The notes: generated by a model not told the origin, from the sequence alone. Counted from the first letter of the stretch, positions 15,860-50,748 are shown. The stretch: 64,000 nucleotides of DNA from Accumulibacter sp. (GCF_035440685.1 NZ_DAORMW010000011.1), one strand, 5' to 3'. Numbers and translations: made by a program.

Positions 15860-16195
15860 GCGCGACCGTGCGGGCCTTCCTCCGGGGCTAAGGGTCATGC
15901 CACGAGGGGACACCCCAAGTCATGTAAGTCATGACCGGTGGCGGAGACTTAGAGGGAAAAATGGCGATTGCTGCCCCGGCGGTTACAGGACTTATACGCG
16001 AATGTCGGAGACCGGATAAGATCCGCATTCACCGCCACCAGAGGTTGCCAATGCCCGCTACCTTGCGCTCTCGATCCGCCATCCGGGGGAGCCCCGCACA
16101 CTGCGTCTTCGCTCCCGCAGCGGGAAGATCCGCCGGCCAGCCCGGGCCGTGCGCGAAGCGCACTGCGACCGTGCCGACAGGGCTGTAATCGCGGC

Positions 16196-19100
16196 ATGTC
16201 TCAGTCCTTATCCGGCGATCCGCAGCCAAGGCCAGGCAGCGGCCCGAAAATCGCCGCAGCCGTGTTCTTCGATCCAGCCAACAAGCGCTGGCCACGTCTT
16301 CGCCTGGGGATGGCGCTGATCGCTGTCACCCTGAGCCTGCTGCTCGGCGGACTGCTGCTCAGTATTCTGGCGGCACCGGTCTTGCCGGCGCTGCATCTGC
16401 CGAACGTCAGCTTTCTCCCGCACGGTGCGCACGCGGTCCCGGACCTCCCGGCGCTGGCTCCCGAACGACCCGCGAGTCGTCGTGAACGCGGCTTGCGCAA
16501 CGAGCAGCTCAAGCTCGCTCACGAGCGTGAGCGCAGCCTGCGGCAGCTGCTGCAGCCAGCGCGCGCGAATGCCGCGAACGTCGATCAGCAGCCACTGGCC
16601 ATCGGCTTTTTCGTCAACTGGGACGATGCCAGCATGAGCTCGCTGAAGGAGAACCTCGGCAGCCTGGATACGGTGATCGCCGAGTGGCTACACCTTGCGA
16701 GTGAGGACGGCACGCTGCGCGAGAACGATCCACTGCGCACCGCACACGTCACCGACTACATTCGTGCCCGCCGGCCCGACCTGACGCTGGTGCCACTGGT
16801 CAACAATTGGAACGGCCATGAATGGGAAGGCGCCAAGCTGGGACGCATGCTCGCCGAACCGGCCGCGCGCAAGCGAACGATCGAGCAGATCCTGGCTTTC
16901 GTCGAAAGCCATCGCTATGCCGGAATCAGCATCGATTTCGAGAACATGGCGGCCAGGGCGCAGCCCGATTTTCAGCGCTTCATGGCCGAGCTGTACGCCG
17001 TCATGCATCCGAGGAAGCTGCTGGTGTCGGTCAATGTGCCGGCTGCCGATGCCGCTTTCGACTACCGTCGCCTGGTTCGCAATGCCGACTACCTGATCCT
17101 GATGGCCTACGACGAGCACTGGGCCGATGGCACGCCGGGGCCGATCGCCAGTCTGCCATGGTTCGCACGCGTCCTGCGCGCCAGACAGCGCGATATCCCG
17201 GCCGAGAAAATGATCGTCGCCATCGGCAACTACGCCTACGATTGGGGGCCGCCCGGCCACCCGGCCGAGGAACGTACTTTCGAAGAGGCCGTGCTTACCG
17301 CCAAGGAATCGGAAGCCAGGCTGCAACTTGACCCGGCCTCGCTCAACCCGACCTTCGCCTACGCCGACGACGACGGCCGCCTCCATCACGTGTGGCTGCT
17401 CGACGCGGTGAGCGCCTTCAACCAGCTGCTTGCCCTGCGCTCGCTGCAGCCGCGTGGCGTCGCCCTGTGGCGGCTCGGCAGCGAGGATCCCGCCTTGTGG
17501 AAGATCTTCGGCAGGAAAGGTGCGCTGGACGCCGCGCGCGCCGAGGAACTCGGCGAGATTCGCTTCGCCTACGGCGTCGATTACGAAGGCAAGGGCGAAG
17601 TCCTCGACGTCACGGCGCAGCCGCAGATCGGCAGGCGGATCATCAAGTTCGACACGCAGCGTGGGCTTATCTCGGGCGAGCGCTTCACGGCTTATCCATC
17701 GCCCTACGTCATCACCCGCCACGGCGGCGCCGAACGCAAGATCGTCCTCACCTTCGATGACGGTCCGGATCCCCGGTTTACCCCACTGGTCCTCGACGCG
17801 CTGCGCGACGCCGGCGTGCCGGCGACCTTTTTCATCATCGGCGCCAACGGCCAGAACCATCCGGACTTGCTGCGCCGTGCGGTCAATGAGGGGCACGAGC
17901 TCGGCAACCACACTTTCACCCATCCGAACATTTCAAGCATCTCGCTGAAGCAACTGGAGCTCGAACTGTCGGCGACGCAACACTTGCTGGCCAGTGAGGT
18001 CGGTCGTCACTCCCTGCTGTTCCGCTCGCCCTATGCCGTCGACGCCGAACCGGAAACCATCGACCAGGTACGCCCAGTAGAATTCGCCGCGCAGCAAGGC
18101 TATGTCAACGTCGGCATGCAGATCGACCCGGACGACTGGAAGCGCCCCGGCACCGACGAGATCGTCAAGCGCGTCGTCGACGCGGCCGAGCGAGGCGAGG
18201 GCAACATCGTGCTGCTGCACGATTCGGGCGGCGACCGTACGCAGACGGTTGCGGCGATTCCACGCATCGCCGAAGCGCTACGCAAGCAGGGGTTCGAATT
18301 CGTCACCGTGGCGCAACTTCTCGGCCGCAGCCGCGACGCGATCATGCCGCCAGTGCCTCCCGAAGAGCAGTTGCGCAGCCGCTTGGACGGCGCCGCTTTC
18401 GCGGTCATCAATTGGGCGGGGACAGCGATCGACTGGCTCTTCGTGCTCGGCATCGTCCTCGGTATTGCCCGCCTGCTGTTCGTTGGCGGGCTCGCCATCT
18501 ACCAGCGCTACAGTGAGCGCCATCGCGTCTTTGATCCGGCCTATGCGCCATCGGTCGCGGTCGTCGTGCCGGCCTTCAACGAGGAAAAAGTGATCGTTCA
18601 GACAATCGCCTCGCTGCTCGCCTGTGACTCGCCGGGGGCGTTCGAGATCATCGTTGTCGACGACGGCTCCAGTGATGCCACCTATCGTGTGGCCAGCGAA
18701 GCCTTCGCCAACGACTCGCGCGTGCGCGTGTTCAGCCAGGCGAACGCTGGCAAGCCGGCAGCTCTCAACTTCGGCTTCGCCCAAGCGGGCGCCGAAATCG
18801 TTGTCGCCCTCGACGCCGACACGGTGTTCACCAGGGAGACGATCAGCAAGCTCGTTCGCCACTTCATCGACCCGCAGGTCGGTGCCGTTGCCGGCAACAC
18901 CAAGGTCGGCAATCGCGTCAATTTGCTCACTCGCTGGCAGGCGCTCGAGTACATCACGAGCCAGAATCTTGATCGCCGCGCCTTCGCCGTCCTCAACTGC
19001 ATCACCGTCGTTCCCGGCGCCGTCGGCGCCTGGCGTCGCGAACTCGTCGACCGTGCCGGCGGCTTCAGGCACGACACCCTGGCCGAAGACGCCGACCTCA

Positions 19101-19666
19101 CCCTGGCCATTCGCAAGCTCGGCAAGCGCATTGTCTATGAAGAAGAAGCCATCGCCCTGACGGAAGCGCCGGACACCGTGCGCGGCTTCATAGGCCAGCG
19201 CTACCGCTGGATGTATGGCACCATGCAAGCGGCCTGGAAGCATCGCGATGTCCTGTTCCGTCCGCGTTTCGGCGCGCTCGGCTTTGTCGCCCTGCCCAAT
19301 GTGGTCATTTTTCAGGTGCTCTTCCCGCTGCTCTCACCGATCATGGACCTGTTACTGATCGGCTCGCTGGGGTCGGCCGCCTTCAACTACTCGCATCACC
19401 CGGAGGAGTATTCCGCCGACAACCTATGGCGGGTCCTTTTCTACTACGCGCTCTTCGTCAGCGTCGATTACCTGGCCGCCATCCTCGCCTTCGCCCTCGA
19501 ACGCAAGGAAAGCTGGGGCCTGTTGGTCTGGCTGTTCTGGCAGCGCTTCTTCTATCGCCAGTTGATGTACTACGTCGCCATCAAGAGCACCGTGACCTCG
19601 CTGAAAGGCGTACTCGTTGGCTGGGGCAAGCTGGAACGTAAGGCGACGGTTCAGGCGCAGGCTTGA
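16196..19666 (+). CDS. multidomain exopolysaccharide synthase: N-terminal TM + GH18-like domain + NodB polysaccharide deacetylase + family-2 glycosyltransferase
   Basis: ATG at 16196. NodB motifs LTFDDGPD and HELGNHTFTHP. GT2 motifs VVVPAFNEE, VVDDGSSD, LDADT, QRYRWMYG. C-terminal TM helices. Confidence 0.85.
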   Translation: MSQSLSGDPQPRPGSGPKIAAAVFFDPANKRWPRLRLGMALIAVTLSLLLGGLLLSILAAPVLPALHLPNVSFLPHGAHAVPDLPALAPERPASRRERGLRNEQLKLAHERERSLRQLLQPARANAANVDQQPLAIGFFVNWDDASMSSLKENLGSLDTVIAEWLHLASEDGTLRENDPLRTAHVTDYIRARRPDLTLVPLVNNWNGHEWEGAKLGRMLAEPAARKRTIEQILAFVESHRYAGISIDFENMAARAQPDFQRFMAELYAVMHPRKLLVSVNVPAADAAFDYRRLVRNADYLILMAYDEHWADGTPGPIASLPWFARVLRARQRDIPAEKMIVAIGNYAYDWGPPGHPAEERTFEEAVLTAKESEARLQLDPASLNPTFAYADDDGRLHHVWLLDAVSAFNQLLALRSLQPRGVALWRLGSEDPALWKIFGRKGALDAARAEELGEIRFAYGVDYEGKGEVLDVTAQPQIGRRIIKFDTQRGLISGERFTAYPSPYVITRHGGAERKIVLTFDDGPDPRFTPLVLDALRDAGVPATFFIIGANGQNHPDLLRRAVNEGHELGNHTFTHPNISSISLKQLELELSATQHLLASEVGRHSLLFRSPYAVDAEPETIDQVRPVEFAAQQGYVNVGMQIDPDDWKRPGTDEIVKRVVDAAERGEGNIVLLHDSGGDRTQTVAAIPRIAEALRKQGFEFVTVAQLLGRSRDAIMPPVPPEEQLRSRLDGAAFAVINWAGTAIDWLFVLGIVLGIARLLFVGGLAIYQRYSERHRVFDPAYAPSVAVVVPAFNEEKVIVQTIASLLACDSPGAFEIIVVDDGSSDATYRVASEAFANDSRVRVFSQANAGKPAALNFGFAQAGAEIVVALDADTVFTRETISKLVRHFIDPQVGAVAGNTKVGNRVNLLTRWQALEYITSQNLDRRAFAVLNCITVVPGAVGAWRRELVDRAGGFRHDTLAEDADLTLAIRKLGKRIVYEEEAIALTEAPDTVRGFIGQRYRWMYGTMQAAWKHRDVLFRPRFGALGFVALPNVVIFQVLFPLLSPIMDLLLIGSLGSAAFNYSHHPEEYSADNLWRVLFYYALFVSVDYLAAILAFALERKESWGLLVWLFWQRFFYRQLMYYVAIKSTVTSLKGVLVGWGKLERKATVQAQA

Positions 19667-24824: not shown

Positions 24825-25931
24825 CTACAGGCGTCGACCGAGGGCGGTCAGATAGGGCAGGGCGAGGAAAGGCCAGAGGCTGGCGATCCAGCGGGTGAGA
24901 CCGTTGAAATTGAGGAAGTGACCTTGCCGCCAGGTGGCCAGCGCCGCTTCCGAATAGGGGTTGGGTGGCGTCAGATTGACCAGCGCCGTTCCGGCCATCA
25001 AGGCGACGCCGGCGAAGCCGATGCGCAAGGCCGCCGGCAGCATCAGCAGCAGTGAGAGCAGCACGCCGCCGATCAGCAGGCCGAGCCGGGCTCCCGGGGT
25101 CAGCCAGACCAGGGCGTCGTGCGGCGCGACCAGCACCGCCGCGGCCAGCGTCCTGATCGCCAGCGCCAGTGCGAAAAAGGCGAGCAGCACCAGGTGTGGC
25201 GCGTTCTGCTCGGCAAGCAGGGTGCGCGCGAACAGTCCGATGACAATCGTATTGCAGACGATGACCCCGGTTTCGAGCATGAAGAAGGCGGGCGCGGCAT
25301 AGGGTACGGCCGGCGTCAGCCCAAGCACCTGGCGCAGGTCGCCGACGCCAAAGAGCAGCGTTTCGGGTGAGAGCTGGGTCAGCAGCCACATGCCGATCAG
25401 TACCAGCCCGAGTTCGGCGTGCGGGATCGGCGCCAGCAGCTTCTGCTGCAGCTGTGTGATGTGCCGAAAGATGGCCTTGCCCTTCCAGACCGCGATCACC
25501 GCACCGATGGCGCTTCCGGCGCTGTTGCACGCCAGGTCGAGATTCGAGGGCACGCGCGTCGGTAGCCAGTTCTGCAGACATTCGACGGTGAAGCTGAGCA
25601 AGGCGCCGATGCACAGCGCGGCGAGCGCCGCCGGCCAGCGGCCGGGCAGCCGGCGCAGGCTCAGCGCCAGCAGGAAGCCAAGCGGCACATAGGCCATGAC
25701 ATTGACCGCCAGGTCGAATCCCGTCCAGTAACGCGGCCAGGCGGCGCCGAGAAAGGCCAGCGGCGAGAGGCCCAGGTCGCGCCAGTTGGCGAAGGGGTAG
25801 AGGCTGGCGTAGCTGATCAGCACCAGGTAGGCGAGGGCCAGGTACACGGGCAGGCGCGTCGGTCGCGGCAGCGGCTGCTGCGCAGGCGTTTCCTCGGTTG
25901 GGGCAATGATCGGCGGCTGGGCTTGTTCCAT
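24825..25931 (-). CDS. VanZ-like family membrane protein
   Basis: ATG at 25931. VanZ-type core NVMAYVPLGFLL...ECLQNWLPTRVPSNLDLACNSAGSAIG followed by further TM helices. Confidence 0.7.
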   Translation of the reverse strand: MEQAQPPIIAPTEETPAQQPLPRPTRLPVYLALAYLVLISYASLYPFANWRDLGLSPLAFLGAAWPRYWTGFDLAVNVMAYVPLGFLLALSLRRLPGRWPAALAALCIGALLSFTVECLQNWLPTRVPSNLDLACNSAGSAIGAVIAVWKGKAIFRHITQLQQKLLAPIPHAELGLVLIGMWLLTQLSPETLLFGVGDLRQVLGLTPAVPYAAPAFFMLETGVIVCNTIVIGLFARTLLAEQNAPHLVLLAFFALALAIRTLAAAVLVAPHDALVWLTPGARLGLLIGGVLLSLLLMLPAALRIGFAGVALMAGTALVNLTPPNPYSEAALATWRQGHFLNFNGLTRWIASLWPFLALPYLTALGRRL

Positions 25932-26077
25932 GCGGATGGTGTGCCGAGCGTTATGAAGCCGCCATTCTAGCGCCTGCGAGCGTTGGCGCGGCCGCAGCAG
26001 GCGGCTCGCTAGCCCCAAGGTACGCACCCGTGCCGCGCGGCAGGCGCTCGTTTCGGCCGGGGTGCTCGGGTGGCCAA

Positions 26078-29000
26078 TCAGTTCTTGCCCGGCTGCGCGT
26101 CGGGTATGCTGAAGTGCTTTCTTTCCTTTTCGTCGAGCTCGCGCCCGACGCGCCCGAGTACTTCGGTGGCGGTCTCTTCGATCGGGCGGCACGAGTCGCA
26201 GTGCCACCGTTGCACCGTCCCTTTCCTGCTGGTGGTGAGCACGCTGTTGCCGTCGGCAGAGAACTGCGCGCTCAGGAGCGCTCCGTCATCGCCGCGCAGG
26301 ACTTCCAACTGACGGCCGCTGGCCACATCCCACAGTCGCGCGGTCCCGTCCTCGCTGGCGGTGACCGCGGTCTTGGCATCGGGAGAGAACTGCGCACTCA
26401 CGACCCACTGCTCATGGCCGCGCAGCACATGCAGCTCCCGGCCGCTGACCACATCCCACAATCGCGCGGTCTTGTCGTCGCTGGCGGTGATGACCCTGAG
26501 CGGGGGCTTGCCATCGGGAGAGAACTGCGCGTTTTCGACCCAATCATCATGGCCCTGCAGGACGTCCCACAATTTGCCGTCTTCAACCGTCCACACTCGC
26601 GCGGTGCCGTCCTGGCTAGTGGTGATCACGTAATTGCCATTGGGGGAGAACCGTGCGCTCTGAACCGGGCCCGTGTGCTCGTTCAAGGTGTGCAACAGTT
26701 TGCCGGTGTTCCCCTCCCACAGGCGGGCGGTCTCGTCGTCCTTGCTGGTGGTGATCACGAACCTGCCATCGGGGGAGAACTGTGCGCTCTGAACCGGGCC
26801 CGGGTGGCCTTTCAGGGTGTGCAACAGTTCGCCACTGTCCACGTTCCACAGGTGCGCGGTATTGTCGTCGTCGCTGGTGGCGGTAATCACGAACTTGCCA
26901 TCGCAGGAGAACTGTGCGCTCAGAACCGGGCCCGCGTGGTCTTTCAGAGTGTGCAACAGCTCGCCGGTGTTCACCTCCCACACTCGCGCGGTGCCGTCCT
27001 TGCTAGTGGTGATCACGGACTTGCCATCGCAGGAGAACTGTGCGCTCAGAACCGGGCCCGGGTGGTCTTTCAGGGTGTGCATCAGTTCGCCGGTGTTCAC
27101 CTCCCACAGGCGGGCCGTCTCGTCGTCCTTGCTGGTGGTGATCGCGGTCTTGCCATCGGGAGAGAGCAGGGTAGTCCCGACCAAGCCTCCAGGAGGCTGG
27201 CGCAGCACTACCGGCTCGTGGTTGCCGTCCAGCATCCACAGTCGCGCCGTTTTGTCGTTGCTGGCGGTAAGTATGGTCGTGCCGTCGACAGAGAATTGCG
27301 CGCTTCGGACCCAACTCCCATGGCCGCGCAGGATGTGCAACAGTTCGCCGGTGTTCACCTTCCACAGTCGCACGGTCCTGTCGTCGCTAGCGGTGAGCAC
27401 GGTTTTGCCGTCGGGGGAAAACTGCGCGTCCAGGACAGAACCCTCATGGCCTTGCAGGATGTGCAACAGTTCGCCGCTGTTCACGTCCCACAGTCGCACG
27501 GTCTTGTCGTCGCTAGCGGTGAGCACGGTCTTGCGGTCGGGAGAGAATTGCGCGCTCAGGACCCAATCCTGATGGCCTTTCAGTTCGTGCCGTAGATGAC
27601 CGCTGTCGACGTTCCACAGTCGTGCGGTCTGGTCCTTGCTGGTGGTGATTGCGGTCTTGCCATCGGGAGAGATCTGCGCGCTCAGAACCGAGCGCTTATG
27701 CCCTTGCAGCGTGTGCAATAGTTGACCGTTGTCCACGTTCCAGAGTCGTGCGGTATCGTTCTTGTTGATGGTGATTGCGGTCTTGCCATCGGGGGAGAAG
27801 TGTGCGCTCAGAACCGGGCTTTCATGGCCGCGCAGTACGTGCGACGGGTTGCCGCTGTCCACCTCCCAAAGTCGGGCGGTGTTGTCGTCGCTGGCGGTGA
27901 TCGCGGTCTTGCCATCGGGAGAGAACCGAGCGCTTCGGACGGGTGCCGTATGGCCTGTCAACACGTGCAACGGTTGGCTGCTGGCCACGTTCCACAGTCG
28001 CGCAGTTTTGTCGTCGCTGGCGGTGATCGCGGTCTTGCCATCGGGAGAAAACCGAGCGCTACGGATGGGCGCCGTATGGCCTTTCAGCTCGTGCAACTTT
28101 TGGCCGCCGGCCACGCTCCACAGTCGCGCGGTGTCGTCGTTGCCGGCGGTAATCGCGGTCTTGCCATCGGGCGAGAACTGCGCGTTCCACACGTGGCCCT
28201 TATGGCCGCGCAGGACATGCGAGTACGCATAGTCGGCGTTCGCCGATCTGAGGATCCCGTCGGCCTTGGCGTTGGCCTCGGGCTTGTCGAGCTGGTGCAC
28301 TGCCAGCGCCAGCCGCAGGCTCTGGTCGGGATTGTACCTGCCGAGTTCTTCGGCCTTGATCGCCAGCTCACTGACGCGATTCTCAAGGGCCCGCTTTTGG
28401 GCTTCTTCTTTTGCGGCGATGGCCTGGATTTTCGACTGTTTGGCGTGGTAGCTTGCGTAGTTTGCGTCGTTTTTCGACTGCTCGGCTTCTTCTTTTGCGG
28501 CGTTTGCCTGCCATCCCAACCAGGCTGCGATCAGAGCCGCGACCACCGCGATTGCGCAACCGCCGATGGCGATATGGCTGCGCCGGGAAATGCGCTGCGC
28601 ATAGTCTTCCGCCTGTTGGCGGTCCTTCACTGCGCGCGCGCGTTCCCCTTCAGCGCGCTCCGCAGCCGCGTGCTGCAATTCGGCCTCCGCCTCAAGCCTC
28701 GCCGTGCGTGCCTCCTCGGCCTGGCGCTGCAGGGCCTGCGCGCGCTCGGCTGCTTTTATGTGCCATTCCAGGCTGCCCTGGATGTAGGCGTCGACCAGCG
28801 CGTAGGCGCCAGGCCCTTCGTAACGTGTGGCCCAGGTCTCGGGATGGGCGCGGCTTTGTACCCGCGTACGCCAGCGCTCCGCGCGCCGGCGGTCGTTGTC
28901 GTCCAGCAGGTCGCCGCCTTCCTTCTCCCAGCGGGTCGCACGCCGCTGCCACTCGCGGAGTTCGCTGACGTCGAGGTCCTCTTCGTCGAGCCAGTCGCGG

Positions 29001-30244
29001 AACAGTTGCCATTGCCGAAACAGGCTCTCGTGGCTGATGTCGATCAGGTCGTCGTCGCCGATCGCCCGGCCGGCACGCGGCAGCACGAAACCGGCGCTCT
29101 CCGCACGAAAGGCGTCGAGCACCGCGTGCAGGTCGTCGTGCTCGCTCCCGGGCAGTAGCTGCCGCAGCTCGTGCAGCGTCTGCGGTCGGCGTACGTCGCG
29201 GCCTTCGTGTCGTTCGACCAGCGACAGCAGCACCTGGCGTGCGATGCGGCGCCGCGCGGCGCTCAGCGATGCATGGATCGCCGAGGCATGGTTGTCGATG
29301 GCGTTCGAGAGCGATGGCCCGGTGCCGCCCTCGGCGGTGCCGAGGCTGTCCTGGCGCGGCGCACAGATGGCATTGAAATCATCGGCGTCGATCTCGCTCC
29401 GCCCCTGTGAGCTGGCGCGTTGCCACATGCAGAGCAGGGCATGTTGGAGGATCGGCAGTTCGTCGTCGCCGCTTAGTGCGTTGAGCATGCGGTTGGCGAG
29501 TACCGGGTCGATACTGCCGCCGGCCAGAGTAAGCGGCGAGACGATGACCGATTTGATCTGCTCGACAGCGAGGCGCGGCGTCAGGTAGATGCCACTGTTG
29601 ATGGCTTCGGGAAAGCCATGGAAGGTGACGCAATTGCCAAGGAAGTCCGAGCGCATGGTGATTACCACGTAGATCGGCAGGGCTTCGCTCGCCGAACGCA
29701 GGAGCAAGGCGACGAAACTGTCGGCCTCGTCGGGGTTCCGCTGCCGGTAGCGGAAGATTTCCTCGAACTGGTCTACCACCAGCAACAGGGACTGGCCTTC
29801 GAAAGCATCGGCTTTCTGGCGGTACAGCTCGGCCAGGGCCAGCGGGCTGGTGCCGAGCATTGCCGCCAGCGACGAGAGCGCAGCGGCGTGCTCCCTGTTG
29901 TCAGCCCAGCGGGGGTCTTCGCTCAGTGCGTTCGCCAGATTGGCCAGTGGAGCGTCGCCGGGCTGGAAGGTGCAGATGTTCCAGCGACAAGGCGGACTGG
30001 CGTCGCTGCCGGCCGGGGCATGCAGTGCGCCCCGGTGCAGCGCCGGAATCAGTCCGGCGCGTACCAGCGACGATTTGCCGCTGCCCGAGGCACCGAGCAC
30101 GGCGGTGAAGCGCTGCCGGCGTTCGAGCTTGGCGAGCAGTTCACGGACCTGCGGCTCGCGGCCGAAAAAGAGCAGCGACTCGTTTTCGGTGAACGGGCGC
30201 AGGCCGACGTAGGGTGCCGGCAGGCTGAGCTTGATGCGCTTCAT
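26078..30244 (-). CDS. STAND-class P-loop NTPase with coiled coil, hydrophobic helix and 16 WD40 repeats (1388 aa)
   Basis: ATG at 30244 overlaps the stop of the upstream TIR gene (ATGA). FFGREPQVRELL, Walker A GASGSGKSSLVRAG, Walker B LLLVVDQFEE, ITMRSDF. Helix IAIGGCAIAVVAALIAAWLGW. 16 units of the type L+GH..+V.SA.FSPDGKT.+TAS.D.TARLW. Confidence 0.9.
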   Translation of the reverse strand: MKRIKLSLPAPYVGLRPFTENESLLFFGREPQVRELLAKLERRQRFTAVLGASGSGKSSLVRAGLIPALHRGALHAPAGSDASPPCRWNICTFQPGDAPLANLANALSEDPRWADNREHAAALSSLAAMLGTSPLALAELYRQKADAFEGQSLLLVVDQFEEIFRYRQRNPDEADSFVALLLRSASEALPIYVVITMRSDFLGNCVTFHGFPEAINSGIYLTPRLAVEQIKSVIVSPLTLAGGSIDPVLANRMLNALSGDDELPILQHALLCMWQRASSQGRSEIDADDFNAICAPRQDSLGTAEGGTGPSLSNAIDNHASAIHASLSAARRRIARQVLLSLVERHEGRDVRRPQTLHELRQLLPGSEHDDLHAVLDAFRAESAGFVLPRAGRAIGDDDLIDISHESLFRQWQLFRDWLDEEDLDVSELREWQRRATRWEKEGGDLLDDNDRRRAERWRTRVQSRAHPETWATRYEGPGAYALVDAYIQGSLEWHIKAAERAQALQRQAEEARTARLEAEAELQHAAAERAEGERARAVKDRQQAEDYAQRISRRSHIAIGGCAIAVVAALIAAWLGWQANAAKEEAEQSKNDANYASYHAKQSKIQAIAAKEEAQKRALENRVSELAIKAEELGRYNPDQSLRLALAVHQLDKPEANAKADGILRSANADYAYSHVLRGHKGHVWNAQFSPDGKTAITAGNDDTARLWSVAGGQKLHELKGHTAPIRSARFSPDGKTAITASDDKTARLWNVASSQPLHVLTGHTAPVRSARFSPDGKTAITASDDNTARLWEVDSGNPSHVLRGHESPVLSAHFSPDGKTAITINKNDTARLWNVDNGQLLHTLQGHKRSVLSAQISPDGKTAITTSKDQTARLWNVDSGHLRHELKGHQDWVLSAQFSPDRKTVLTASDDKTVRLWDVNSGELLHILQGHEGSVLDAQFSPDGKTVLTASDDRTVRLWKVNTGELLHILRGHGSWVRSAQFSVDGTTILTASNDKTARLWMLDGNHEPVVLRQPPGGLVGTTLLSPDGKTAITTSKDDETARLWEVNTGELMHTLKDHPGPVLSAQFSCDGKSVITTSKDGTARVWEVNTGELLHTLKDHAGPVLSAQFSCDGKFVITATSDDDNTAHLWNVDSGELLHTLKGHPGPVQSAQFSPDGRFVITTSKDDETARLWEGNTGKLLHTLNEHTGPVQSARFSPNGNYVITTSQDGTARVWTVEDGKLWDVLQGHDDWVENAQFSPDGKPPLRVITASDDKTARLWDVVSGRELHVLRGHEQWVVSAQFSPDAKTAVTASEDGTARLWDVASGRQLEVLRGDDGALLSAQFSADGNSVLTTSRKGTVQRWHCDSCRPIEETATEVLGRVGRELDEKERKHFSIPDAQPGKN
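26200..28225 (-). repeat. ~126-bp periodic coding repeats (WD40 blades) inside the STAND gene
   Basis: 16 consecutive ~42-codon units; several share long near-identical DNA stretches (e.g. GCCATCGGGAGAGAACTGCGCGCTCAG variants). Confidence 0.85.
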
Positions 30245-31785
30245 GCTGGCGACAGTCCGCGCAGGAAATCGGCGAGGTCCTGCTCGTTGATCGCGACCAC
30301 GTCGTCCGACTCGATGCGGAACTCGCTGGCAACGGTCCCGTTTTCGAGGTACACCCCCCAACGTTCGAGCGGCAGGCCGCTCTCGGCGAGCTGGTTGAGA
30401 AAGTAGAGCAGGCGGTTGTAGACCGCGAAACGCTTGCTGGGGTCGGCAAAAATGGTGATGCCGGCGCGACAGGGCCGCAGGAGTTCCGTGACGTCGACGC
30501 CATTGTTGCCCAGTGGTGCGTTCGGCGGCAGGCCGCGCTGGTCGAAATTCTGGCCGCGAATGATCGCGCTGAGCCGGCCGGTCAAGGCCGGCACGCTGGC
30601 CAGGTCGTCGACGAAGACCAGCGGCTTGCGCACCCTGGCGAGCGCTGGCGCCGTTGGCGTGACAGCCGCGCGTTCGCGACGCGTGCGTTCGGCGTGCAGA
30701 CGTTCGATGACTTCGCGCTGGAAAGCGGTACGATTGGTAACCCGCAGGGATTCGGTCTGGAACAGCGCGGCGTGTCCGGGATCTGCGATCTCGTCGGGGG
30801 CTGGGAGACTCTCGCACCATTGCATGATCGGCATGCTCGCCCGGCGCGCGTCGCGGGCGCGCTGGAATTGCAGCTGTGGCAGCGGCGCCGCGAAGCCTCT
30901 GAACTTGCGCCCGGCGCTGGCCGAGAGCAGTTGCACGAAGAGGTCGCTGCGTTCGAGGTCGGCGCTGATCGTGGTGTCGAATTCCTGTGGCGTCAAGCCG
31001 ACGTAGTCGCCCTCAGGCAGGACGGTGATGCCCTCGGCTGCCAGCGCCGCCCTGATGGCGCCGTGCTGCAGTTCGAGGTCGTCGGTGGCGTCGGCGAGTA
31101 CGACCGTTCCGAGGGGCGCGAGGCCGACAGCTGCTTTGCCGTTCGTCCTTGCCGATTCAGGGCGGGTGTTGCCGGCGGCGATGTCTGCTTGGGTTGTTGC
31201 GGACGTCATTGCCGTGACCGTGCGCGCGGCGCGTATGCGGGCATCGATGGGCACGCGCAGCTCGTTCAGGATCCGCCAGTAGTAGCGGGTGCCTTCCTCG
31301 TCGCAGTCTTTCGGGCTGGGGTAACCGGCGAGTACCGGCGATGCGGCGTTGACCGGCTTGTACCAGAACTTGGCGTGAATCGTGCCCTTGCGCAGCGCCT
31401 GAATAATCGGCGGCACGCCGGTGAGGTCCTCGAAAGGCCAGATCTCGACGACCAGGACGTCACTCGGCTTCTCCGCGCTGCCACCATGGCTGCGGACGAA
31501 GTGTTCGAGCTCCTTGCCACACCACTGCGAATCGACGTAGTTCTGGGACAGCAAGAGGACCAGCAAACGGCTGCGCCGGACCTTGTCCAGCAACTCGTCG
31601 TTGAATTCGTCGCCGGGCCGGAGCTGGTGGTCGATGAAGATGTTCTTCGGGAGTGCGCTCGGTCCTTCGTTGAGGTTGGCCGCCAGCGCAGTCACCCAGC
31701 CGACCGAAGTGGACGCCCCCAGGGCAAGGCCATTGTCAGCATGCGCGTAGCTGACGAAGATATCGTACGTTTCAGAAGGGTCCAT
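30241..31785 (-). CDS. TIR-domain protein with two further TIR-like/DUF4062-like modules (514 aa)
   Basis: ATG at 31785 after GGGAGG. TIR motifs YDIFVSYAHAD, RLLVLLLSQNYVDSQWCGKELEHF (Glu92 sits at the catalytic-Glu position). The track ORF extends to 32016 but without RBS or domain support. Confidence 0.85.
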   Translation of the reverse strand: MDPSETYDIFVSYAHADNGLALGASTSVGWVTALAANLNEGPSALPKNIFIDHQLRPGDEFNDELLDKVRRSRLLVLLLSQNYVDSQWCGKELEHFVRSHGGSAEKPSDVLVVEIWPFEDLTGVPPIIQALRKGTIHAKFWYKPVNAASPVLAGYPSPKDCDEEGTRYYWRILNELRVPIDARIRAARTVTAMTSATTQADIAAGNTRPESARTNGKAAVGLAPLGTVVLADATDDLELQHGAIRAALAAEGITVLPEGDYVGLTPQEFDTTISADLERSDLFVQLLSASAGRKFRGFAAPLPQLQFQRARDARRASMPIMQWCESLPAPDEIADPGHAALFQTESLRVTNRTAFQREVIERLHAERTRRERAAVTPTAPALARVRKPLVFVDDLASVPALTGRLSAIIRGQNFDQRGLPPNAPLGNNGVDVTELLRPCRAGITIFADPSKRFAVYNRLLYFLNQLAESGLPLERWGVYLENGTVASEFRIESDDVVAINEQDLADFLRGLSPA

Positions 31786-47565: not shown

Positions 47566-47608
47566 CGCAAAAAAGCGCGGGACCAAAGGTTCCGCGCTTT
47601 TAAATTTT
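47566..47608. terminator. bidirectional intrinsic terminator (ends the 6S RNA transcript)
   Basis: A-run, 10-bp stem GCGCGGGACC / GGTTCCGCGC with AAA loop, then T-run. Confidence 0.8.
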
Positions 47609-47792
47609 GTCCCCGCAAGTGCCGTCAGGCCGGCATCCTGAACCTGGGTTCAGATAGGTCACATCCCTTCCGCATCAGGTATGCCCGACTTGAGGGGCAT
47701 ACACAACAGCGGTTTCTATGGTCTGCAACCAATGCCAATTAGCATTGGTTCAAGGAATCTATGACCTTAACAAACACCGCAGGGAACTCTCT
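47607..47792 (-). ncRNA. ssrS: 6S RNA
   Basis: Directly downstream of zapA, as in E. coli. 5' UUCCCUGCGGUGUU can pair with 3' CACUUGCGGGGA (closing stem). Conserved 3' hairpin CUGAACCCAGGUUCAGG parallels E. coli CUUGAACCAAGGGUUCAAGG. About 185 nt, followed by a terminator. Confidence 0.75.
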
Positions 47793-48380: not shown

Positions 48381-48539
48381 GGCCAGACTATAGATTCAAG
48401 ATGCATCCCCGGTCAAGGCGTGCGCGGCGCTTCCAGGGTGCTCCTGTTGCTTGGCAGTTGCGGCTTTCGGCGATGAGGCTGGGCCGCCGGAGGCTGGGCG
48501 CGCTATAATCCGCGCTTTCGTCGACTGCGGTCAGCGAAA

Positions 48540-48735
48540 AACATCGTGCAAGGTGCCGCAGCGCAGATTCTCTGCCGCGGTTAAACGGGAAGCAGGTGCG
48601 TGTTCTTCGGAGCACCATGCCTGAGCTGCCCCCGCAACGGTAAGCGAGTGCGGGTGTGTCGACATGCCACTGGGCGCCAGCCTGGGAAGGTGACACACCA
48701 AGACTTGCGAGCCCGGATACCGGCCTTCGCACACA
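48540..48735 (+). promoter_or_regulatory. cobalamin (B12) riboswitch
   Basis: GGTTAAACGGGAAGCAGGTGCG, GCTGCCCCCGCAACGGTAAGC, GCCACTGGG...CTGGGAAGGTG and B12-box-like GAGCCCGGATACCGGCC. TATAAT at 48504-48509 upstream. Precedes a TonB-dependent receptor gene. Confidence 0.85.
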
Positions 48736-48873
48736 TTTGACGCAAGTGCCGCGGGGAAGCGGACACGAAACGCTCGGCCGTGCCGCTCGCCTCGTTGCCT
48801 TCTCCCTCGTGTTCTTGATTTTTTGTTTGCTTGCCGGCTTGCGGGGACGCTTGCCGGACCCAGGGAGAAACCC

Positions 48874-50748
48874 ATGAGGCATCAGAGGACGCCACGCGCA
48901 GGTTCCGCCGTGGCATTGGTCACGTTTTGCGGGACCTTGTTTCCGGCGGCTGGCAACGCTGCCGATCAGCTGCTCGACCCGATCGTTGTCACCGCGACGC
49001 GGCAGGCAACACGCGCCAACGAGTTGACCAGCGACGTGTCGGTCATCACCCGTGAAGAAATCAACGAGGCCGGGCAGTCAACGCTGGAGCAAGTGTTGTC
49101 GCGCCAAGCTGGCATTCAGTACACGGCCAATGGCGGTCCAGGCACCAACAGCGGCGTGATGATCCGCGGTGCCAGCAGTAATCAGTCGATCGTGCTTATC
49201 GACGGCCAGCGCATCGGTTCGGCGACCACCGGCAGCGCGGCCCTGGCGCGCATTCCGCTGGACCAGATCGAGCGTATTGAAATCCTGCGCGGTCCGGCTT
49301 CGTCGCTATACGGCGCCGACGCCATTGGCGGGGTGATCCAGATCTTCACTCGCAAGGGCGAGGGGCCGACGCGACTGAATGCGAGTACGGGCTATGGCAC
49401 CTACGGGACCACCGACACCACGGTTGGTGTCTCCGGCGGGACCGACCTGGTTTCCTACAGTCTTCAGGCAGGTTATCTGGATACTGGCGGTTTCAACGCC
49501 ATTCACAACAAGTCGGACATCTACTACAACCCGGACGATGACGGCTATCGCAACAGCAACGGGAGCGCAAGCTTCGCTCTGCGGCCGGCAGCCGGTCAGG
49601 AAATCGGCGTCAATCTGCTGGCCAGCGATGGTAGCAACCAATACGACTCGAACGACTTCAGCGCCGTCGGCGCCAACAAGAACTACACCAACGATCAGCT
49701 CCTGGAGTCCTATTCGATCTACTCGCGCAACCGCTTGAACCAGGTGTGGACGAGCACTCTGCGTCTCGGTACCAGCACCGACGCCTCCAAGGGCTATGCC
49801 GGCAATGTCCGCGAGTACACCATACGCACCGACATGGAGCAGGCCTCGTGGCAGAACGATATCGTCCTGCCCGTCGGCGAAGCGCTGCTGGCGGTGGAAT
49901 ACACCAAGCAGAAAGTCTCCGGCAGCACCGACTACACGGTGACCGAACGAACGATTCGTTCGCTGTTGGGTGGCTGGAACGCCAATATCGAGAAGCACCG
50001 CTTGCAGTTCAACCTGCGCCGTGACGACAACTCCCAGTTTGGCGATGAAACGACGGGTTCCGCTTCGTACGGCTATCAGTTCTCCCCGGACTGGCGAGGA
50101 CATGTGTCGTATGGGACGGCGTTTCGCGCACCGACTTTCAACGAGCTGTACTTCCCTTCCAGCGCCTTCTTCTCCGGTGGCAATCCGGACCTGCAGCCGG
50201 AACAGTCGAAGAACACCGAACTGGGCGCCAATTGGGAGCGCGGCAATCATCGTGCTTCGCTGGTCTTGTACAACAACAATGTCAGCGACCTGATCGAGTT
50301 CCGGCCACCGACCTATGCCCCGGTCAACGTCAGCAAGGCCGTGCTGCGTGGCGCTACGCTGACCTACGACGGGCGCTTCTCGGAATGGCGGGCAGGCGTC
50401 GCCATCGACTTCCTCGATGCGAAAAACGAGGAAGACGGGCCGAACAAGGGCAATCGACTGGCCCGCCGCTCCGCACAACAAATGAGCAGTTACATCAGCC
50501 GTACGCTTGGCGACTGGGATTTGCGCGGCGAGTGGCAGCTGGTCGGCAATCGCTACGATGACCCGGCCAACACGAAGCTTCTCGGTGGCTACGGGCTGGT
50601 CAATCTGTATGCCGACTACCGCCTGCAACGCGACTGGACCTTGTTCGCACGTGCCAACAACATCTTCGACAAGTACTACGAGACGATTGACAACTATGCC
50701 ACTGCGGGAGCGAACGTCTTTGTCGGTGTCCGCTACGCACCCAAGTAG
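48874..50748 (+). CDS. btuB: TonB-dependent receptor, probable vitamin B12 transporter
   Basis: ATG at 48874 after GGGAGAAA. Signal peptide, TonB box DPIVVTATR, plug and barrel, C-terminal VGVRYAPK. Cobalamin riboswitch in the leader. Confidence 0.8.
   Translation: MRHQRTPRAGSAVALVTFCGTLFPAAGNAADQLLDPIVVTATRQATRANELTSDVSVITREEINEAGQSTLEQVLSRQAGIQYTANGGPGTNSGVMIRGASSNQSIVLIDGQRIGSATTGSAALARIPLDQIERIEILRGPASSLYGADAIGGVIQIFTRKGEGPTRLNASTGYGTYGTTDTTVGVSGGTDLVSYSLQAGYLDTGGFNAIHNKSDIYYNPDDDGYRNSNGSASFALRPAAGQEIGVNLLASDGSNQYDSNDFSAVGANKNYTNDQLLESYSIYSRNRLNQVWTSTLRLGTSTDASKGYAGNVREYTIRTDMEQASWQNDIVLPVGEALLAVEYTKQKVSGSTDYTVTERTIRSLLGGWNANIEKHRLQFNLRRDDNSQFGDETTGSASYGYQFSPDWRGHVSYGTAFRAPTFNELYFPSSAFFSGGNPDLQPEQSKNTELGANWERGNHRASLVLYNNNVSDLIEFRPPTYAPVNVSKAVLRGATLTYDGRFSEWRAGVAIDFLDAKNEEDGPNKGNRLARRSAQQMSSYISRTLGDWDLRGEWQLVGNRYDDPANTKLLGGYGLVNLYADYRLQRDWTLFARANNIFDKYYETIDNYATAGANVFVGVRYAPK

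Follow-up and report, generated by a model that had tools for sequence, protein, structure and literature searches.

In a 64,000-nucleotide stretch of Accumulibacter sp. DNA (GCF_035440685.1, NZ_DAORMW010000011.1; hereafter the window), two adjacent minus-strand genes encode a TIR protein (gene 1) and an nSTAND1 nucleoside triphosphatase (NTPase) that carries a hydrophobic helix and a WD40 array (gene 2), and they are considered here as a candidate immune effector and its receptor. The features of both genes are collected in Table 1. Gene 1 opens with an ATG at 31785 and closes with a TGA at 30243-30241, and gene 2 opens with an ATG at 30244 and stops at 26078. On the minus strand, the junction reads ...CTG TCG CCA GCA TGA AGC GC..., so that gene 1 ends with LSPA before its stop codon and gene 2 begins with MKRIK. 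This shared stop and start, read directly from two open reading frames (ORFs) of the same strand, agrees with the translational coupling proposed in a preliminary description of the locus, and the motifs quoted there (YDIFVSYAHAD, SQWCGKELEHF, FFGREPQ, GASGSGKSSLVRAG and LLLVVDQFEE) are all found in the translations. The N-termini of 24 aligned homologues agree with the gene 1 start at 31785, and both genes have a third-position GC content (0.75-0.78) similar to that of other real genes in the window, whose overall GC content is 64%. Chance as the origin of the two genes is excluded, the E-values of homologues going down to 0. A promoter and terminator scan of the locus was uninformative.

The N-terminal part of gene 1 is a canonical TIR domain, as had been recognised earlier: the TIR_2 profile (PF13676) matches residues 9-105 with E=2.6e-14, and the TIR profile of the protein matches the plant TIR NAD+ hydrolases (NADases) RUN1, RPP1 and ROQ1. 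Plant TIRs were also among the matches of a fold search with the full-length protein, in a list dominated by generic multi-domain α/β folds such as PleD. In a profile of 25 orthologues, SQNYVDSKWCGKEL stands against SENYARSRWCLDEL of RUN1, which places Glu92 on RUN1 Glu100 and the WCGKEL of gene 1 on the WCLDEL of RUN1. Because the crystal structure of RUN1 E100A (7s2z) reads WCLDAL at the aligned position, Glu92 can be assigned to the position of the catalytic glutamate, where the preliminary description had put it. This residue is invariant across the 25 orthologues and conserved to at least 90% among 89 more distant representatives of the family (17-49% identity to the window protein). The conserved glutamate in the WxxxE region after strand β-C, which characterises catalytic TIR NADases, is retained in gene 1 as E92, and the domain is predicted to be an active NADase. 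Homologues of gene 1 number 170 at E<=1e-3, and the 120 of them listed are mostly full length, with 50-95% identity. No transmembrane segment was found in the gene 1 protein, and a transmembrane-like segment occurs in 2 of 204 family members; the protein is presumably soluble and cytoplasmic.

The other 330 residues of gene 1, which make up its middle and C-terminal domains, find no Pfam match even at E<=10. AlphaFold models (predicted local distance difference test score, pLDDT, of 82 for the full-length protein and 87 for residues 222-514) contain two further β-α domains in this part, at about residues 225-378 and 386-514. With the canonical TIR removed, the model of residues 222-514 matches the RPS4/RRS1 TIR with a template modelling score of 0.6 and a probability of 1.0. 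The DUF4062 profile (PF13271) is matched by 32 of 89 family members, on the middle domain in both homologues that were checked for position, and in one homologue (P0242) the region of the C-terminal domain scores as TIR_2. By hhalign, the middle and C-terminal domains are related to each other (probability 87%, E=3.6e-6) when profiles from a diverse alignment (A3) are used, and only then; profiles from close orthologues (alignment A1) gave no significant relationship among the TIR, middle and C-terminal domains.

D236, P257, Q285 and Q306 of the middle domain are invariant in the 89 representatives, and family conservation places no conserved glutamate near the start of its helix α-C. DUF4062/NIR domains are TIR-like NADases that require a glutamate, the E-to-Q mutants being dead (bioRxiv 10.64898/2026.09.04.749371; 10.64898/2026.05.01.722283), and Avs and NLR-like proteins use them as NADase effectors (bioRxiv 10.64898/2026.09.04.749371). 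NIR genes are reported to be enriched in defence islands over the background (20% versus 3.9%). Since NIR NADases need their glutamate and none is conserved here, the middle domain is probably without a catalytic residue and non-catalytic, and we infer the same inactivity for both extra TIR-like domains. The canonical upstream TIR is the likely enzyme of gene 1, and the C-terminal domain is a candidate docking module for the NTPase. The preliminary description had spoken of a separate and much larger effector polypeptide; separate it is, and its size is that of a TIR plus two degenerate TIR-like domains. A stand-alone adaptor was also considered, in the form of a 136-aa gene (locus L088) that lies upstream of an nSTAND1-transmembrane-Endonuclease_1 gene and matches the C-terminal domain of gene 1 with E=2e-49, and was rejected as a frameshift or gene-calling artefact, because the TIR and middle domains are found in the DNA upstream of it, in a different frame and beyond a poly-proline linker. 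The TIR-middle-C gene at this site (L088:4528-6004) is split by a frameshift within the linker, either through a sequencing error or as a real pseudogene, so that its C-terminal domain was called as a gene of its own.

Gene 2 begins with a STAND P-loop NTPase, as had been described, and its Walker motifs are intact. In 59 homologues, G51, S53, G54, G56, K57 and S58 of the Walker A motif and R198 are each at least 90% conserved; given this conservation and that of the Walker B motif, the NTPase is predicted to be active. nSTAND1 is the sole NTPase family among the 25 of 57 matching Pfam families listed for gene 2, NACHT (PF05729) being absent from these 25, and the precomputed NTPase-type domains of its homologues are PF20703 and PF13191 only. 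Pfam found no recognisable effector or signal-binding domain (such as SLOG, Macro or SAVED) in gene 2, and when the NTPase sequence was compared with the PDB, no related solved structure was returned, the sole match being a spurious superoxide dismutase. The charged stretch that follows the NTPase, where the preliminary description had placed a coiled coil, is presumed to be helical from its composition. The 16 WD40 blades of the preliminary description were counted again as 16 units of 42-45 aa; the WD40 Pfam match (E=5e-146) falls into 14 stretches, and Tandem Repeats Finder counts 15.3 copies of a 126-bp unit (73% matches). Contrary to that description, the length of the array is not exceptional among STAND proteins, and orthologues carry similar ones. 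After the last blade, the window protein continues as HCDSCRPIEE..., versus SCDVCLPITGE... in a Paraburkholderia orthologue; this CxxC tail, if periplasmic, could form a disulfide.

Table 1. Features of the gene 1/gene 2 pair, with window coordinates and the basis of each assignment.
Feature	Position	Strand	Basis
Gene 1, 514-aa protein: TIR plus two TIR-like domains	30241-31785	-	Pfam, homologue alignment
TIR domain, residues 1-190	31216-31785	-	PF13676 E=2.6e-14, PF01582 E=2.9e-10
Glu92 codon, predicted catalytic glutamate	31510-31512	-	alignment with RUN1 E100
Middle domain, residues 225-378, TIR-like (DUF4062/NIR-like) α/β	30652-31113	-	model, profiles, conservation
C-terminal domain, residues 386-514, shorter α/β, candidate NTPase-docking module	30244-30630	-	hhalign to middle domain
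ATGA stop/start overlap of gene 1 and gene 2	30241-30244	-	sequence
Gene 2, 1388-aa protein: nSTAND1 NTPase, transmembrane helix, WD40 array	26078-30244	-	Pfam, hydropathy, repeats
nSTAND1 NTPase, residues 11-443	28916-30214	-	PF20703 E=7.4e-85, profile positions 1-375/379
Walker A, G51-A-S-G-S-G-K57-S58	30071-30094	-	conservation
Walker B, D158-Q-F-E-E162	29759-29773	-	conservation (at least 90%, 59 homologues)
Charged Ala/Glu/Arg/Gln-rich stretch, residues 470-557, ending in RISRRSH basic anchor	28574-28837	-	sequence
Predicted transmembrane helix, residues 558-576, IAIGGCAIAVVAALIAAWL	28517-28573	-	mean Kyte-Doolittle 2.49
16 WD40 repeats, residues 677-1347, predicted extracytoplasmic sensor	26204-28216	-	Pfam, repeat count, Tandem Repeats Finder
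C-terminal tail, residues 1348-1388, CDSC motif	26081-26203	-	sequence

The hydrophobic helix between the NTPase and the WD40 array, which the preliminary description had noted, is confirmed by hydropathy (Table 1). An equivalent helix occurs in 49 of 62 locus-encoded homologues (the window protein counted), whose 15-residue helix flanks hold 244 Lys/Arg residues on the N-side versus 118 on the C-side, and of 84 homologues from the database, each 560 aa or longer, 73 have exactly one helix after the NTPase. It appears to be a conserved transmembrane segment, family-wide, that separates the WD40 array from the NTPase; this topology was absent from the earlier reading and changes the likely site of sensing. 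The NTPase and the TIR domain can be placed in the cytoplasm because they need ATP and NAD+, and with a cytoplasmic NTPase and a single helix, the C-terminal module of the single-helix forms would lie outside the cytoplasm. Across the homologues, the helix is followed by WD40, FGE-sulfatase (as in the Methyloterricola orthologue), Sel1 (18 repeats in one case), TPR, RHS, PAN/Apple (8 Cys in about 200 residues) or Endonuclease_1 modules. Several of these module families are typical of extracytoplasmic proteins. In a Nitrospira orthologue (L086:11509-14934), a PAS-GAF-HisKA-HATPase module replaces the WD40 array, and two adjacent helices (506-524 and 531-549) are present instead of one; as the HATPase needs cytoplasmic ATP, this variant may serve as a natural control for the topology. 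From the hydropathy, the charge bias and the domain types, the WD40 sensor is probably extracytoplasmic. The idea of such a STAND sensor has a precedent, since one NACHT-type protein targeted by a diversity-generating retroelement has been predicted to carry periplasmic sensor domains (PNAS 2024).

The same features bear on a different arrangement, in which the helix is buried or serves only as a tether, the WD40 array detects a phage protein inside the cell, in the manner of Avs or Apaf-1-like STAND proteins, and the TIR protein depletes NAD+. We regard this as distinctly unlikely. Characterised bacterial STAND sensors are all cytosolic, WD40 sensors have been described for Apaf-1-like bacterial STAND proteins (PMC13581612), and gene 2 has no N-terminal signal peptide, all of which would suit a cytosolic NLR-like sensor; but both flanks of one membrane-spanning helix cannot stay in the cytoplasm, and the helix, with Kyte-Doolittle values of 2.0-3.1 and a basic N-side flank, recurs in about 80-87% of homologues. 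Moreover, Cys-rich PAN and Endonuclease_1 modules stand behind the helix in relatives, and the histidine-kinase variant carries two helices; both points speak against this arrangement.

The association of the two genes was surveyed with one genome per species, among 79 loci with relatives of gene 1, of which 64 extend 3 kb or more beyond that gene on its downstream side. In 60 of these 64 loci, the next gene downstream is an nSTAND1 gene of the same orientation, so that the pair is syntenic well beyond the window. The intergenic gap is mostly -8 to +3 nt, the 4-nt overlap recurs in related loci, and the pairing persists down to about 25-30% identity of the TIR protein. The pair is found in Pseudomonadota, Nitrospirota, Acidobacteriota, Bacteroidota and Bacillota; the hosts include Accumulibacter, Nitrospira, Nitrosomonas and Methylococcaceae, and many come from wastewater or sludge and from soil. 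As judged from these sequences, the two genes are one co-inherited, translationally coupled module across phyla. The parts also belong to larger families: 1128 clusters (50% identity) are matched by the middle and C-terminal module of gene 1 with E<=1e-3, and 4483 relatives of the nSTAND1 NTPase were found at E<=1e-20 among the candidates scored.

In some relatives, the two proteins are partly or wholly fused. One protein (P0145) joins the TIR, the middle domain and nSTAND1; another (P0139) joins the middle domain, nSTAND1, the transmembrane helix and WD40 repeats; and in Caballeronia novacaledonica a fused TIR-nSTAND1-transmembrane-WD40 gene (L084:17889-21521) lies 6 kb downstream of a split pair. 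Because fused TIR-nSTAND1 relatives exist, the TIR can be assigned to the effector position of an NLR-like protein. These fusions, with the TIR N-terminal to the NTPase, also speak against a reversal of roles as in Thoeris, where the TIR protein would sense and make a cyclic ADP-ribose-type signal to which the STAND protein responds downstream. Weak ThsB-type matches of the TIR (PADLOC, E~1e-3; NCBIfam ThcB4, E=5e-6) and the observation that TIR genes in multigene operons are often signal generators (bioRxiv 10.64898/2025.12.03.692087) point towards such a reversal, whereas gene 2 lacks a recognisable effector or signal-binding domain, and its variable, repeat-rich end resembles a sensor. A signal-responding gene 2 is, in our estimate, very improbable.

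The variation among relatives bears on the function of the module. Sensor modules are swapped among close orthologues of gene 2. In Paraburkholderia aromaticivorans (CP051514.1), the gene 2 orthologue (L080:11521-15501) carries 16 almost identical 42-aa WD40 repeats, which suggests recent homogenisation or expansion and may be compared with the highly internally conserved repeats of fungal NLRs. The Paraburkholderia pair lies among insertion sequence (IS) elements, a group II intron and a SLATT gene, with ParE/PaaA2 just downstream; toxin-antitoxin modules surround the pair in Variovorax, and PIN/Phd/MazE toxin-antitoxin genes surround it in Nitrospira (L086). Two TIR and nSTAND1 pairs occur in one Methylococcaceae metagenome-assembled genome (bin-150; L026 and L041), and appear to be paralogous copies, as expected of diversifying receptors. 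Some gene 1 relatives bear added CHAT, EAD1-trypsin, PNP, kinase or TCAD9 domains. These domains belong to the effector repertoire of predicted conflict systems (Kaur et al., PMC7159879 and PMC8195603).

On balance, we lean towards the view that the two genes form one module, in which a membrane-spanning NLR-like receptor acts with a separate TIR effector in an immune or cell-death response. An immune role for the pair is our inference from these comparisons, and the pair would then be an uncharacterised variant of the STAND-TIR conflict systems. Several observations weigh against this view. The extracytoplasmic position of the sensor is deduced from the hydropathy, the bias in charge and the types of domain; only one case of the two-helix control is at hand; it would be unusual for a double propeller of 730 residues to be exported with no cleavable signal peptide; and the Endonuclease_1 variant suggests that the module behind the helix is not always a sensor. 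The neighbours of the pair in the window and in Methyloterricola are housekeeping genes, two Accumulibacter assemblies hold the pair at the same chromosomal site with common flanking genes (59-93% identity), the PLSDB plasmids do not contain the pair, and phage records gave two weak matches only; given this stable site, these neighbours and the near absence from plasmids and phages, the pair does not lie in a typical mobile defence island. Lastly, PADLOC v2 (2023) has no system-level match for the pair, and no experimental work on this two-gene composition or on members of the family was found in the literature; these two results also uphold the earlier statement that no experimentally characterised system with this exact composition is known.

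The genomic setting would also suit outside-in signalling that is not immune, in which a cue from the environment or from other cells tunes NAD+ metabolism, dormancy or regulated cell death within flocs and biofilms, for kin recognition or development and not for phage defence. The housekeeping neighbours, the stability of the locus within Accumulibacter and its scarcity in plasmids and phages are what such a function would predict, as are the variant ending in a PAS-GAF histidine kinase and the hosts, which are largely sludge, soil and biofilm bacteria; conflict systems of this type have moreover been linked to a multicellular habit (Kaur et al., PMC7159879). We nevertheless think it unlikely that the function is non-immune: the swapped sensors and near-identical repeat arrays suggest an arms race, toxin-antitoxin, IS or SLATT genes adjoin the pair in three genomes, caspase-like, trypsin and PNP effector domains are held in common with predicted conflict systems, and paralogous copies occur within one genome (L026 and L041; L084).

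If the module is an immune receptor with its effector, the following sequence of events can be proposed. The WD40 array would face the periplasm or the outside, and the binding of a ligand there would be relayed through the helix; candidate triggers are phage parts crossing the envelope and other extracytoplasmic threats. On the inner face of the membrane, the NTPase would oligomerise in an NTP-dependent manner, and the oligomer may recruit and cluster the gene 1 protein, with the two TIR-like domains of the latter (middle and C-terminal) as the points of contact. The clustered TIR domains would form active sites that hydrolyse NAD+ or produce an ADP-ribose-derived signal, and the outcome would be growth arrest or cell death, as abortive infection or regulated cell death.

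Among the closest known relatives of the pair are the nSTAND1 systems that Kaur, Burroughs, Iyer and Aravind predicted (eLife 2021, PMC8195603). In that paper, nSTAND1 is named as a clade and predicted to be a counter-invader NTPase, with N-terminal adaptors or effectors that include TIR, with FGS sensors, and with repeat or lectin sensors predicted as parts of conflict systems; the passages covered here mention no transmembrane helix or extracytoplasmic sensor for nSTAND1. The present pair shares with those systems the NTPase clade (PF20703), the TIR effector class and a similar choice of sensors (FGE-sulfatase or repeats), and a gene 1 orthologue of 59% identity is paired with an nSTAND1-FGE-sulfatase protein; EAD1, CHAT, trypsin and PNP domains also occur on relatives of the present proteins. 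There, the effector or adaptor (EAD, bDLD3) is fused N-terminally, whereas in gene 2 the NTPase domain begins at residue 11, and the TIR belongs to another polypeptide, which holds two further TIR-like domains and in which no adaptor was recognised. Pfam gives no EAD or bDLD match for either protein. The novelty claimed in the preliminary description holds for the exact composition, which is uncharacterised, and not for its kind, since the nSTAND1 clade and its TIR fusions had been predicted by Kaur et al. in 2021.

The three-part logic of effector, STAND NTPase and C-terminal repeat sensor is common to the Avs (AVAST) and bNACHT systems (Gao et al. 2022; Kibby et al. 2023; Lee et al. Nature 2026, PMC13581612), which also use TIR or NIR NADase effectors and are expected to lead to abortive infection, as proposed here. 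In those systems, one cytosolic polypeptide carries all the parts, the NTPases belong to other clades and most sensors are TPR-like; the present module has two polypeptides, a predicted transmembrane helix and an nSTAND1 NTPase, and no PADLOC model for Avs or NLR systems matches it. The PADLOC matches of gene 2 stay at the level of the P-loop (mad3, E=3e-4), that of the TIR is a weak ThsB-type match, and NCBIfam gives gene 1 only sub-threshold TIR matches, to the FxsC N-terminal domain and ThcB4. Lee et al. (PMC13581612) count nSTAND among 589 STAND clades and note WD40 and FGE sensors. Thoeris has a ThsB-type TIR beside a signal-activated effector (ThsA or a later one); here, the ThsB matches are weak and the partner is a STAND NTPase.

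Plant TNL resistosomes (RPP1, ROQ1) resemble the module in another way: the gene 1 TIR is most similar to plant TIR NADases and has the same catalytic glutamate, and in the plant proteins STAND oligomerisation brings the TIR domains together and so activates them. In plant TNLs, however, one cytosolic chain holds the TIR together with NB-ARC and LRR domains. The RPS4/RRS1 TIR heterodimer is the best single-domain structural match of the gene 1 middle domain; unlike in RPS4/RRS1, any pairing of active and inactive TIRs would occur here within one chain. A TIR-like domain adjoins a STAND NTPase and WD40 repeats in the DUF4062/NIR-NACHT-WD40 proteins, such as human TEP1 and NWD1, and in the bacterial NIR systems Swarozyc, Vulcan, Vesta and Evangelion (2026 preprints), where NAD+ hydrolysis depends on the catalytic glutamate (E108 in PsAvs2, E1008 in TEP1); the gene 1 middle domain, in contrast, finds no DUF4062 match in Pfam and has invariant Gln residues and no conserved Glu near the start of helix α-C. 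As an analogy only, animal Toll-like receptors combine an extracytoplasmic repeat sensor, a single transmembrane helix and intracellular TIR signalling, as is proposed for the present pair, but their parts other than the TIR are not homologous, and here a STAND NTPase would form the cytoplasmic module, with the TIR on a second protein.

A bolder claim, which we consider possible but doubtful, is that the pair represents the first family of bacterial transmembrane NLR-like receptors, in which a STAND NTPase reads an extracytoplasmic sensor and switches on a separate cytoplasmic TIR NADase, with the two dead TIR-like domains of the partner protein as a built-in scaffold or inhibitor of TIR assembly. 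If true, this would be an outside-in innate immune receptor with a Toll-like layout built from NLR parts, and with WD40, lectin-like, PAN, Sel1 and other sensors. Bacteria would then detect threats before or during the crossing of the envelope by means of swappable extracytoplasmic sensors, in contrast to the bacterial STAND/NLR-like immune receptors characterised so far, which sense cytoplasmic targets. The system would allow the signalling of a STAND switch across a membrane to be studied, and the gene 1 protein, with one predicted catalytic TIR and two probably dead TIR-like domains, would offer a natural case of the recruitment and restraint of a TIR NADase.

In the window, the pair is flanked on one side by VanZ-like, DnaJ-like, ferredoxin-like, hydrolase and DsbD genes and on the other by glycosyltransferase, P450 and methyltransferase genes. 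The VanZ-like gene (24825-26207) was considered as a third component and set aside; it is common only to the Accumulibacter loci, and elsewhere does not adjoin the pair. No tRNA genes were found in the window. A 6S RNA gene lies at 47606-47788 on the minus strand (58.2 bits), and on the opposite strand a cobalamin riboswitch (48537-48742, plus strand, 96.6 bits) covers the start of a 685-aa ORF (48694-50748) and the DNA immediately before it. A 1237-aa ORF (15953-19666, plus strand) combines a glycosyl hydrolase 18 domain, a polysaccharide deacetylase and a family 2 glycosyltransferase (chitin-synthase-like), an unusual fusion that could make, modify and cleave a polysaccharide. Finally, the GC content is 0.50 in positions 1-2000 compared with about 0.64 elsewhere in the window, and this segment may be foreign or non-coding DNA.

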